DNA of 32,000 nt from assembly GCF_000021865.1 (NCBI RefSeq), contig NC_014034.1:1110001-1142000 (forward strand), written 5' to 3'. This document shows, piece after piece, positions 1,689 through 5,213 of the stretch. A program made the position numbers and the translations under genes. Source of the stretch: Rhodobacter capsulatus SB 1003. GTDB lineage: Bacteria > Pseudomonadota > Alphaproteobacteria > Rhodobacterales > Rhodobacteraceae. The notes beneath the pieces were generated by a model. It searched no databases and was not told where the DNA came from. It saw only the letters and a list, made by a program, of their open reading frames with translations. Position 1 is the first letter of the stretch. The number at the start of each line of letters is the position of its first letter.

Positions 1689-4600
1689 TCAGACCTGTGC
1701 CTGATCCTTCAGATGGATCTCGGCGATGGCCACGCCAAGCGAGCCCCAGCAGGACAGGAAGCTCAGCACGCCAAGGACCGCCGCCGGGATCATGTAGGTG
1801 CTCTTGTTCAGGGCCGGGATCGCCAGGAACCGCAGCGCCTGGCCGGGAACAAGGTTCAGAATGCCCCGGCTGAACGCCAGCTTGTTGCGCGTCGTCTGCT
1901 CCTGATTGGCGAAATGCACCGAGAGCATGATCAGATAGGCCACCCCCCAGGCGGTCTGGGTCAGCTCGCCGGTGGTGATCTTCGCCTCGCCGGTGATCCA
2001 TTTCTGATAGTGCAGCGCGATCCCGCGCCCCGGACCGCACAGCACCTGGCAGATCCAGATCGTCACGCCGAATCCCGGATCGCCGGGCTGGCAGTTCGGC
2101 GCCCCGGCCAGCGGCGACAGCGCCCAGGGCATGGTGAAAAGCGTCGACAGGAACCCCGCCGCGATGGGCACGATCCCGGCCTCGCCCAGCCCCTTGCCGG
2201 TGGCATTCGCCATCGCCGAACTGGGATCGAGCAGCGAGCGGAACGCCATCACGACGCAATAGCCGGTCAGGAAATTCTCGCGCCATTCCGGCGTCCAGCC
2301 GTTCGCCTCGGCCGCGGTCAGCGCCTTGGCCCGGCTCATCCCCAGCCGGTCTTTCAGCATCTCGACGGTGAAGCTCGCCTTGAAGACGGCCAGCTGTTCC
2401 GCCGTCCAGGGCGTCCGGCCCAGGACAAGCTTGCTGGTGATTGTCATCGGAATCGCCGCGATCCAGGCCACGACATCGATCGGCGTCAGCGTCAGCCGGT
2501 CGCCGGTGAACAGCTTGTAAAGCTGCGACAGGATCGGGATTTCCCATTCCTGAAACAGCGCCAGCTTGACCAGCCGGATCAGATCCTCGACCAGATCGAA
2601 CAGCGTCAGCACGATGCCCTCGGCCGCATCAAGCGCGAACAGCGCCGCCGCCTCCAGCGCCTTCACCAGACCGCTCAGCAACAGCTGCGCCGCCCGGCCG
2701 GGTTCGTTGCCGATGTTGTTGAAATAGCCGAAGGCCTCGTCAAGCGCCTGCTTGCCGTCGCCGAACTGGAAATTGTCCGAAAAGGACTTCATCCGCCCGA
2801 ACAGATCCTGCAACGGATCGGAGAGCGCGGTGGTGGCGCGCAGGATCGCGGCGCCATCCGCCTTGACCGTCAGCTTGCTCTCGTTCTCGCGGAAGGCATT
2901 GAGAAAGATGTTGTGATCGGAGGCATGCTGTTCCTCTTCGCTCGGCTCCTCCTGTTCGAAATAGGCGCCCATCGTCGGATCGCCCTCGCGGTTCAGGGTC
3001 AGGATCAGATTGTTGACGATGCCGTCCAGCCCGGCCTTGAGAAACTCGAACCCCTCCTCGACCCGGCCGCGCAGCGCATGGACGGCATCGGCGGTGAAAT
3101 CGAGCGTCACCCCGACACAATGCTTGATCCCCTCGGCCGTGCGTCCGAAGTCCTTGAAATCGAACAGGAAGGCCAGCCACTGAAAGAGCTGCTCCAGCTT
3201 CACCTTGAGCCAGTTCCACACCCCTTCGATGAAATCGAGCGCCTGCTGGGCGAATTTGATCACCGCCTGAAAGACCTGGCCCGCGATCTTGAACAGCACA
3301 TTCGCGATGCCGTCGACGATCGTCACGACGATCTTTTCCAGCCCGTTGATCAGCCATTCGACACCGTCGCGGATGCCGCGCCAGACCGAGCCCCAGTCGA
3401 TGCCGAGGAACGACCCCCCGGCGTCCAGCTGCGGCGCATGGGCGGCGCGGAAGGCGGCGATGTCGCTGCTGTCCAGGCTGCGATAGACCGGCACGCCGGA
3501 GCCGAAATCGATTTCCCAGGACACGGTGCCAAGCGACCGGAAATCCGCCTGCAGGCTGTGGCGCAGCGCATGGGGGGTGGCGAACTTGTACTGGATCGCC
3601 CGCGCGGTTTCATCGGCCTGCGCGATCCGCATCGATTGCCGGGTGACCTCGGCGATGCTTTCGGCCACCTGCTCGCGGTCCTTGGTGTCGGCGGGCAGCA
3701 GCAGCGCCCCGGCGCTGTCGGTGGCGGTCAGCACGTCGTCCTTCGTGGTCTGCGCCATCTTCGCCTGCAGCTGCCCATTCGGCTGCACGACGATCGGCTG
3801 GCCCGCGCCGGTGACGGGTGTCGAAATCAGCAGCGTCGCCCCCGCCAGCGCATTGGCGCGCTGCAAGATCACCACCTTGCCCGTCGCGTCGGTGCGGAAG
3901 CTGACCGGATCGACAAGGCTGGAGCGATAGGCCTCGCCGTTCACCCAAAGCGTGCAGAGAAAGGCCGCGTTGATGCTGACGGGCGCGTCGTAAAGCGGCG
4001 CCCCCTCGGCATCGACGACGAAGATCTCGGTCGAATGGGTGGGCACCGAGACCAGCTTGTCCTCGGCCTTGGGCAGATCGAGCACCTCGGAGAACCATTG
4101 TTCGGTGTCGGGGGCCTGCCAGAACCGGAAGATCTGGTTGTCCTCGGTCACCGAATAGGCTTCGGAATAGCCGTTCGCATTGCGTCCGACGGCGACGATG
4201 CGGTTTTCCATGGCGCGGGCGAGCGGAAAGATCACCCGCCAGCCCTGCAGCTTGCCCGCGCTGTTGGTGACCTGGCGCGTATAGCTCAGATCGCCCGCCT
4301 CATTGAGCACGAAGACCTCGATCAGCCCGTCGCGGCGCAGGTTCGCCGTCAGCCGGCCCAGCCGCCCGCTCTGGCCCGGATCGACCTGCACCCAATCGTC
4401 GAACTGGATCCCCGAGGTCGACCGCTTGCGCTGCTTCTTCACCCACAAAAGGCCGGTGTCGCGCTCGACCGCCAGGATGTTCAGCAGATTTTCGGCATCG
4501 GCGATCGCGGCGATATGCGAGGCCTTCTTGTTGAGCTTGCGCATGTGCGAGGTGCGGAAACTGTCTTCGGCAAACAGCACCTCGTCATCCATGCCGATCG

Positions 4601-5213
4601 CGAAGATCGCCGATTGCACCGGGTTGTTGGCGGCCATGGCGATCTCCTTGACCACCGCCTCCTTGCCGTCCGGCCCGATCACCGGCGCCCAGACCGGCCC
4701 GCCCCATTTGTCGTTCAGCGGGTCGTAGTAATTCGTGCACAGCCGCCCGTCGGACAGCCGCACGTTGATGTAGATCCGCCCGGTCACGCCGCGCACGCCC
4801 AGAAAGGTGCGGATCACCTCGTCCTGCGGGCCGGTGTTGCGCTGCCCGTAGCCGCCGGATTGAAAGGTGGCCAGCGTCAGCTTGCTCTCGCTGTTGAGCC
4901 CGAAGATCGAGGGCGTGTCGGACCGCCCGCCCGCGGCGTCGAAGAAGTAAAGCTGGCTGGCGCGGATCCCCAGATCGGCTTCCTCATAGGGGGCGAGCGT
5001 CGCATCGGTGCGCCGATAGCGATAGACCCGGCCGGTGGTGCCGACGCTGTAGATGTCAAGCATCCCGGCGGTGTTCAGATAGGTCTGGATCTCGGTGCCC
5101 GAGGAAACCGGCTGCAGCGGCAGGAAGGTTTCCATGTAATTCGTGCTGACCCGCAGCGCCGGGGTGGCCCCGACCGGGGCGGCGTCAAGCGCGGCCGAGG
5201 AAAAGAACGTCAT
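1689..5213 (-). CDS. Giant hypothetical protein (1174 aa): N-terminal seven-repeat beta-propeller-like region, beta-rich middle, Trp-rich amphipathic helical region, C-terminal multi-pass hydrophobic region
   Basis: ORF track 1689..5456. I trimmed the start to ATG 5213-5211 (MTFFSSAALD) because GGGAGA lies 5 nt upstream and the 81 upstream codons are Arg/Pro/Cys-rich and cross a tandem repeat. High GC3 in frame. Seven spaced strand-turn-strand units: MLDIYSVGTTGRVYRY, SIFGLNSESKLTLATF, RIYINVRLSDGRLCTNYY, SAIFAIGMDDEVLFA, LNILAVERDTGLLWV, LIEVFVLNEAGDLSYT, YSVTEDNQIFRFW. Helical segment GIDWGSVWRGIRDGVEWLINGLEK...WNWLKVKLEQLFQWLAFLF. At least five hydrophobic segments lie in the last ~285 aa. 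No signal peptide and no recognisable family. Confidence 0.8.
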   Translation of the reverse strand: MTFFSSAALDAAPVGATPALRVSTNYMETFLPLQPVSSGTEIQTYLNTAGMLDIYSVGTTGRVYRYRRTDATLAPYEEADLGIRASQLYFFDAAGGRSDTPSIFGLNSESKLTLATFQSGGYGQRNTGPQDEVIRTFLGVRGVTGRIYINVRLSDGRLCTNYYDPLNDKWGGPVWAPVIGPDGKEAVVKEIAMAANNPVQSAIFAIGMDDEVLFAEDSFRTSHMRKLNKKASHIAAIADAENLLNILAVERDTGLLWVKKQRKRSTSGIQFDDWVQVDPGQSGRLGRLTANLRRDGLIEVFVLNEAGDLSYTRQVTNSAGKLQGWRVIFPLARAMENRIVAVGRNANGYSEAYSVTEDNQIFRFWQAPDTEQWFSEVLDLPKAEDKLVSVPTHSTEIFVVDAEGAPLYDAPVSINAAFLCTLWVNGEAYRSSLVDPVSFRTDATGKVVILQRANALAGATLLISTPVTGAGQPIVVQPNGQLQAKMAQTTKDDVLTATDSAGALLLPADTKDREQVAESIAEVTRQSMRIAQADETARAIQYKFATPHALRHSLQADFRSLGTVSWEIDFGSGVPVYRSLDSSDIAAFRAAHAPQLDAGGSFLGIDWGSVWRGIRDGVEWLINGLEKIVVTIVDGIANVLFKIAGQVFQAVIKFAQQALDFIEGVWNWLKVKLEQLFQWLAFLFDFKDFGRTAEGIKHCVGVTLDFTADAVHALRGRVEEGFEFLKAGLDGIVNNLILTLNREGDPTMGAYFEQEEPSEEEQHASDHNIFLNAFRENESKLTVKADGAAILRATTALSDPLQDLFGRMKSFSDNFQFGDGKQALDEAFGYFNNIGNEPGRAAQLLLSGLVKALEAAALFALDAAEGIVLTLFDLVEDLIRLVKLALFQEWEIPILSQLYKLFTGDRLTLTPIDVVAWIAAIPMTITSKLVLGRTPWTAEQLAVFKASFTVEMLKDRLGMSRAKALTAAEANGWTPEWRENFLTGYCVVMAFRSLLDPSSAMANATGKGLGEAGIVPIAAGFLSTLFTMPWALSPLAGAPNCQPGDPGFGVTIWICQVLCGPGRGIALHYQKWITGEAKITTGELTQTAWGVAYLIMLSVHFANQEQTTRNKLAFSRGILNLVPGQALRFLAIPALNKSTYMIPAAVLGVLSFLSCWGSLGVAIAEIHLKDQAQV

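Follow-up and report, generated by a model that had tools for sequence, protein, structure and literature searches.

Lectins of the PLL type, known from Photorhabdus, are stand-alone soluble proteins of about 370 amino acids (aa) with up to 14 sugar sites. Lectin-bearing pore-forming toxins such as Vibrio cholerae cytolysin, CEL-III, Vip3 and Cry are secreted as soluble proteins and insert into membranes only once their conformation has changed. Here we describe a protein of 1174 aa (hereafter the target) that is encoded by the last gene of a four-gene operon on the minus strand of a 32,000-nucleotide (nt) stretch of Rhodobacter capsulatus SB 1003 (contig NC_014034.1, positions 1,110,001 to 1,142,000; this whole stretch is called the window, and all features are located in Table 1). 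Like the lectin-bearing toxins, the target joins a carbohydrate-binding-type domain to a membrane-active part; unlike them, it has a helix bundle with the signature of permanent embedding and no evident secretion route. It differs from the PLL lectins in that the propeller accounts for one third of a predicted membrane protein. Judged by its sequence and structural models, the target looks like a permanently membrane-anchored multi-domain protein rather than a secreted toxin. The four-gene operon and the C-terminal half of the target have no described counterpart in the libraries and literature searched and appear to constitute an uncharacterised system; literature searches on the target, PF26607 and the gene combination returned no description of this protein, and no biosynthetic cluster of this four-gene composition was found.

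The sequence of the target is 100% the same as that of ADE84795.1 from R. capsulatus SB1003, which is annotated as a hypothetical protein across all R. capsulatus strains compared, and a homologue search retrieved more than 40 full-length homologues. The 1174-aa protein proposed by a first-pass annotation of this DNA is thus a real gene. The GC content at codon positions 1, 2 and 3 is 0.62, 0.47 and 0.87 in a genome of about 70% GC, and the high value at the third position (GC3) marks the minus-strand frame as the coding one; a 1649-aa open reading frame (ORF) on the plus strand across the same region was rejected as an antisense shadow ORF of high GC. The frame remains open further 5′ as far as a TTG at 5456, but Met1 (nt 5213) is nearly invariant among 41 homologues, which places the start at 5213; the same homologues keep the motif M..F....L..A..G..P.LRVST.YMETF after it. 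By inspection, no Sec- or Tat-like signal is present at the N-terminus, in agreement with the first-pass annotation: the first 20 residues lack Lys, Arg and a hydrophobic core, and the model assigns residues 17-31 to a propeller strand. The GC content is 0.63-0.66 for the target and gene 1 (window 1001-5000 and 7001-10000) against 0.72-0.75 for genes 2 and 3 and the flanks. Since GC3 is equally high (0.85-0.87), the dip reflects amino-acid composition and not obviously foreign codon usage. One R. capsulatus assembly (locus tags ACTTAM_) has gene 2 broken into pieces of 49 and 78 aa and annotates the target as a 1273-aa protein that includes the fused end of gene 3 (P0051), which reflects either decay of the operon in that strain or indel errors in the assembly.

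The N-terminal head, residues 1-385, is all-beta in the full-length AlphaFold2 model, which was built from a 41-sequence alignment (predicted local distance difference test score, pLDDT, mostly 80-93). It contains seven strand-turn-strand units starting at residues 52, 102, 146, 202, 244, 298 and 350, with a spacing of 42-56 residues, so the blade periodicity noticed in the first pass is borne out. The family profile matched only the Photorhabdus lectins PHL, PLL and PLL2-5 among PDB sequences, with E-values from 2e-23 (PHL) to 5e-16. A Foldseek search of the full-length model against the PDB placed PLL3, PLL5, PLL2 and PHL on top (template-modelling (TM) score 0.75-0.79, E=1.6e-12); the TM scores to PLL, PLL2-5 and PHL were 0.70-0.79 overall, and CV39L came next with 0.72-0.73. 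By homology and predicted fold, the head is a divergent new member of the PLL family of propellers, sharing a fold with and detectably homologous to PLL, PLL2-5, PHL and CV39L. Of the tectonin or fucose-lectin kind proposed earlier, the seven-bladed lectin fold stands, and the assignment moves to the PLL family, away from AAL and tectonin proper. A local Pfam scan of the target gave no match, PF26607 (Beta-prop_PLL) included; precomputed PF26607 matches on homologues are partly flagged as faint, and the CV39L family model NF052350 of NCBIfam scored 33 bits with a cutoff of 350.

In PLL lectins, each hydrophobic sugar site is built by a pair of Trp residues 14 positions apart and is repeated between blades (PMC12203525). 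In the target, the PLL-type blade motif EVFA...Q...W is recognisable in blades 5-7, and blades 1-4 are degenerate. Both sugar-site Trp are found only in blade 5 (W257 and W274), one Trp or part of the pair in blades 3, 6 and 7, and neither in blades 1, 2 and 4. As the two-Trp site is complete in one of the seven blades, multivalent sugar binding is doubtful. These data bear on whether the target could be a lectin-targeted pore-forming toxin, that is, a cytoplasmic protein set free by lysis or other release, whose propeller would attach to glycans of its eukaryotic or bacterial target before its amphipathic and hydrophobic helices insert. The true lectin fold of the head favours such a toxin, as does the precedent of the PLL lectins, which like the target have no signal peptide and yet are extracellular according to localisation software (PMC12203525); the restriction of the Trp pair to one blade speaks against it.

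As the fold searches with the full-length model (PDB and viral) were dominated by propeller matches and carried no information on the tail, residues 590-1174 were modelled separately with AlphaFold2 from a 71-sequence alignment. These C-terminal 585 residues were predicted as one compact and confident unit (pLDDT 83, predicted TM score 0.71) in which a stalk of four long helices precedes a bundle of seven. The stalk helices span residues 607-630, 638-683, 686-742 and 838-886 (24, 46, 57 and 49 residues), and the helical insert at 743-837 carries the conserved motifs DHNxFLNA and NFQFGDGKxAF. The Trp-rich amphipathic block announced by the first-pass annotation does begin at nt 3404 (G604); its aromatic fraction is 0.16-0.18 against about 0.10 elsewhere, and as a helix it has a hydrophobic moment of 0.44-0.47, where shuffles give 0.13-0.22. 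This block is part of the stalk in the model of the C-terminal half. Its amphipathic helices are of low confidence in the full-length model, as would suit the mobile segment of a toxin, but the compactness and confidence gained with the deeper alignment argue the other way.

Beyond the stalk, seven helices (H1 to H7) run from residue 911 to 1166 with short loops between them and a pLDDT of about 85-97. All five hydrophobic segments reported in the first pass are present (914-932, 1013-1032, 1048-1060, 1088-1101 and 1142-1164). Hydropathy is clearly high in H1, H3, H4 and H7, whereas H2, H5 and H6 are weakly hydrophobic, a point in favour of a toxin. The bundle has 13% charged residues and a grand average of hydropathy of +0.43; the soluble domains of the N-terminal part have 22-25% and about -0.3. 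In H1, H3 and H4, the positions that vary among 141 family members are hydrophobic (mean Kyte-Doolittle value +1.0 to +2.0, 3-10% charged) and the conserved positions are more polar than the variable ones; the stalk helices show the reverse pattern, that of a soluble protein, and H2, H5 and H6 are intermediate, which keeps the distinction from being absolute. The substitutions in H1, H3 and H4 therefore point to a lipid-facing, permanently embedded domain and not to a soluble bundle hiding a hairpin, which argues against a toxin and against the latent membrane-inserting body that had been proposed for the tail. Loops 4 and 6, on the same side as the N-terminal domains, are net positive, and loops 1, 3 and 5 and the tail are net acidic. 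The N-terminus is thus probably cytoplasmic (N-in), a topology for which no export signal is needed, and we infer that the bundle is permanently inserted in the membrane with the head in the cytoplasm.

To this C-terminal half, Pfam gave no match, and the profile of residues 590-1174 found nothing relevant among PDB sequences. Structure prediction, which the first-pass annotation had suggested as a check, likewise turned up no known fold: a Foldseek search of the C-terminal model against the PDB returned no match at E<=0.001, and its 50 best entries include no toxin. For the alpha-helical toxins (ClyA/Xax/Yax, colicin-type, Cry domain I and Vip3), no match to the membrane-active part was seen by PDB profile, Foldseek or Pfam. 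The best Foldseek matches were assorted membrane proteins with E-values of 0.18-8, including seven-helix rhodopsins and G-protein-coupled receptors (GPCRs) with TM scores up to 0.50. Membership of the bundle in the rhodopsins was rejected, the best match having E=2.4 at a TM score of 0.50 and helix 7 being without Lys; the conserved Lys, K928, sits in helix 1.

An exhaustive profile search of 1.84 billion representatives retrieved 2315 clusters at E<=0.001, of which 270 reach E<=1e-30, counted at 50% identity. Most members have 1150-1250 aa with the module at the C-terminus, and the wide-family consensus retains the PLL-type head. The N-terminal heads vary, as seen in six long members that were scanned: one carries FG-GAP repeats (P0160) and another a Vps62-like region together with a faint precomputed PLL match (P0140). 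Conservation across the wide family is concentrated in Pro, Trp and Gly plus D660, N768 and K928, residues that look structural rather than catalytic. Profile and model together strongly indicate that the C-terminal 585 residues represent a new, widespread domain family. With about 2300 clusters lacking a Pfam model, a solved relative or a described function, a role for this domain would annotate thousands of hypothetical genes.

The target is preceded by three genes on the same strand, designated genes 1 to 3 in order of transcription. The gene ends overlap, gene 3 overrunning the start of the target by 29 nt. Genes 1, 2 and 3 followed by the target occur in this order in essentially all of 40 genome loci with enough upstream sequence (gene 3 is absent from two), and in about 30 genomes the target closes the fixed operon. 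Pyxidicoccus, Burkholderia, Stappia and one Pseudonocardiaceae genome each share this arrangement of all four genes. The loci come from Alpha-, Beta- and Gammaproteobacteria, Myxococcota, Actinomycetota, Acidobacteriota, Bacteroidota, Gemmatimonadota and Bacillota and cover at least eight phyla. The flanks differ at every locus; the operon is widely transferred and has moved among phyla. Burkholderia copies contain a fifth gene of 551 aa between genes 1 and 2 (L002:4429-6084 and L048:5385-7040), which is related to gene 1 as a distant paralogue (20% identity), and one of these copies lies on a 249-kb plasmid with the insertion sequences (IS) IS3 and IS5 on either side, beside a thiazole/oxazole-modified microcin (TOMM) bacteriocin cluster. 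In the metagenome-assembled genome GCA_034680565.1 (L050:590-4990), gene 3 and the target homologue form a single ORF of 1466 aa (P0013), which is either a genuine fusion or the product of a single-base error in the assembly where the two genes normally overlap. The gene order kept across phyla and this one fusion ORF argue for a functional link between the operon genes and the target.

The operon probably ends with the target, because a terminator-like hairpin lies just past its stop codon and a promoter-like site for cbiM follows at 1629-1657 (both from a consensus scan only). Directly downstream on the minus strand (window 2-1595) are genes for a CbiM-PDGLE fusion and CbiQ of an energy-coupling factor (ECF)-type cobalt transporter; an Rfam scan of the window gave no family at threshold and no cobalamin riboswitch. 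Membership of cbiM and cbiQ in the operon was rejected in view of the intervening terminator-like and promoter-like sites and of their absence from the Pyxidicoccus, Burkholderia, Stappia and Pseudonocardiaceae loci.

The three upstream genes are distant from characterised proteins. For gene 1, Pfam, NCBIfam, PHROG and PDB profile searches were without match and the homologue search gave only close, unannotated orthologues. The profile of gene 2 matched DMATS prenyltransferases only in the whole PDB (4yzj, E=0.003; 9iia, E=0.57), in two collinear stretches each. TIGR03429 was the sole NCBIfam family seen among its orthologues (3 of 22, E=6.5e-5, far below the cutoff), and the homologue search returned only close orthologues, none of them annotated. 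Near its N-terminus, gene 2 has a DMATS-like motif (S..L...G.P.E ... R), and K/R-x-Y and x-Y motifs recur in it, but it is about 70-100 residues shorter and far below the family thresholds; E73, R87, K150, Y152, E195 and Y197 are invariant. Gene 3, which NCBI names a prenyltransferase/squalene oxidase repeat protein, had squalene-hopene cyclase as the only PDB match of its profile (E=0.017), with its DADDTA aligned to the catalytic DVDDTA. Among 21 orthologues, D83, D85 and D86 are invariant and T87 is kept in at least 90%; Pfam found no consistent family in these orthologues, only single weak matches to two alpha/alpha-toroid families. Gene 3 thus resembles class II terpene cyclases in the aligned DxDDT(A) motif, but it is one domain of about 300 aa, not two barrels, and stays far below the family thresholds; its 308 aa would be long enough for one barrel only. 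A LanC-like identity of gene 3 was rejected, since the Burkholderia orthologue does not keep the Cys/His motif. We regard gene 2 as DMATS-like and gene 3 as class II cyclase-like on signals that are weak but specific.

These data suggest, tentatively, that the target is a membrane platform composed of a docking head and a seven-helix domain, which in this subfamily would act with the prenyltransferase-like and cyclase-like proteins on a lipophilic prenylated compound. The propeller, beta-sandwich and alpha/beta domain are carried on the four-helix stalk in the models, and the stalk runs into the bundle; the bundle would span the cytoplasmic membrane and leave the N-terminal part of about 900 residues in the cytoplasm. 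With most of its sugar sites lost, the propeller would more likely dock a partner protein or a lipid-linked ligand than act as a multivalent lectin. The target, the products of genes 2 and 3 and the 775-aa protein could then assemble at the membrane to make, modify or handle a prenylated (isoprenoid) compound, with the seven-helix domain either serving as a membrane site to bind or pass the lipophilic product or anchoring the enzymes where prenyl diphosphates are supplied. Elucidating the role of the target could lead to a new terpenoid or prenylation pathway associated with the membrane, or to a membrane effector of a new kind, and the genetic tractability of R. capsulatus SB1003 makes the question directly testable.

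A bolder proposal, a long shot at best, is that the four genes encode a new membrane machine in which genes 2 and 3 either prenylate and perhaps cyclise Trp residues of the stalk or make a terpenoid ligand for the seven-helix domain. In the first version, the targets would be the invariant stalk Trp (D606-W607-G608, W611, W666 and W679), and if true this would amount to a form of protein lipidation that bacteria are not known to have. In the second, the terpenoid would be held by the seven-helix domain as retinal is in rhodopsins. Either version, if true, would mean a new membrane fold and activity in thousands of bacterial lineages.

Several observations weigh against a membrane platform working with the partner proteins. 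D660, N768 and K928 are the few polar residues conserved family-wide, and distant members (about 20-25% identity) stand alone without the three partner genes, so the core function cannot depend on the partners. The partner assignments rest on the weak E-values of 0.003 and 0.017 together with motifs, two-domain class II cyclases are about twice as large as gene 3, and neither a prenyl-diphosphate synthase nor any further biosynthetic gene lies in the operon. When the bundle is scored on a crude Hessa-type scale, H7, the last helix, is the only one of clear transmembrane grade, with two more at the margin, and the topology signal from the loop charges is modest.

Among the alternatives, a role in conflict or defence survives best, although we consider it unlikely. 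Here, the variable head would sense an invader or damage in the cytoplasm, the stalk and bundle would open or disrupt the membrane in abortive infection, and the upstream genes would be accessory. The attachment of different heads (PLL propeller, FG-GAP propeller and Vps62-like) to one C-terminal module speaks for such a system, and so do the patchy distribution over at least eight phyla and the Burkholderia plasmid copy between IS elements beside a bacteriocin cluster. PHROGs gave weak phage tape-measure matches to the Trp-rich stalk region (E=0.001-0.05), which would fit as well but may reflect coiled-coil composition. However, none of the four operon proteins matched PADLOC-DB v2 (2023 library), phage genomes yielded nothing, and the flanks examined consist of housekeeping or metal-transport genes, not defence islands. 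The partners, moreover, resemble isoprenoid enzymes, and partners of this kind are not known from described defence systems.

A decidedly unlikely explanation is that the target is an envelope tether or receptor-like protein, in which the bundle, with its outline similar to that of seven-transmembrane receptors, would be an anchor or sensor, the stalk and propeller would bind a cytoplasmic or envelope polymer, and the upstream genes would be linked by co-transcription only. The stand-alone family members and the predominance of Pro, Trp and Gly among the conserved residues, suggestive of a structural role, are consistent with a tether, as is the outcome of the fold search, whose only matches, none of them strong, are membrane proteins with seven helices (rhodopsins and GPCRs, TM score up to 0.50, E>=2). 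Those Foldseek E-values are not significant, though, no output domain or helix-7 lysine is present, and co-transcription only is at odds with the operon order kept across phyla and the one gene 3-target fusion.

The lectin-targeted toxin introduced above is very unlikely, since the PDB profile and Foldseek searches gave no sequence or fold likeness to any solved toxin and no secretion, lysis or immunity gene is linked to the target, leaving no evident release route. The first-pass view of the target as a pore-forming toxin or abortive-infection effector drew support from none of the analyses, with no match to such proteins in Pfam, NCBIfam, PADLOC or PDB sequences, one of seven sugar sites complete and partners that resemble isoprenoid enzymes.

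Table 1. Location of the operon genes and of the predicted domains of the target (window positions; all on the minus strand).
Feature	Window position	Strand	Residues or length	Basis or remark
Target gene, last of operon	1689..5213	-	1174 aa	R. capsulatus SB1003 ADE84795.1
Operon gene 1, conserved protein	7129..9456	-	775 aa	no Pfam, NCBIfam, PHROG or PDB relative
Operon gene 2, distant DMATS/ABBA-type aromatic prenyltransferase-like protein	6096..7115	-	339 aa	profile, motifs
Operon gene 3, divergent alpha/alpha-toroid protein with motif PxDADDTA	5185..6111	-	308 aa	profile, motif
Terminator-like hairpin just past target stop	1665..1682	-		consensus scan only
Seven-bladed beta-propeller, PLL/PHL lectin fold, degenerate sugar sites	4059..5213	-	residues 1-385	profile, Foldseek, blade table
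Beta-sandwich domain	3786..4052	-	residues 388-476	secondary structure, pLDDT 75-90
Small alpha/beta linker domain	3414..3776	-	residues 480-600	AlphaFold model
Stalk of four long helices with helical insert	2556..3413	-	residues 601-886	model of C-terminal half
Seven-helix hydrophobic bundle, probable integral membrane domain, N-side cytoplasmic	1716..2537	-	residues 893-1166	model, substitutions, loop charges, hydropathy

Other genes of the window lie upstream of the operon. On the plus strand at 9727-13537, a Gly/Pro/Ala-rich ORF of 160-180 aa (from MSKHDDEDDD) comes first; behind it lie the genes for an HMA_2-containing ATPase of the P1B type (10921-13062) and for a small HMA_2 protein (13094-13537). 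This ATPase may be RCC01042, which could not be placed in any P1B subgroup (PMC3903287). A siderophore uptake cluster at 15178-22170 comprises an FecCD permease, a periplasmic binding protein, a TonB-dependent receptor and an enterochelin-esterase-like protein. Further along on the plus strand (22396-26930), this purple non-sulfur bacterium carries gas-vesicle genes, which encode an AAA_5 (GvpN-like) ATPase and two GvpL/GvpF proteins.

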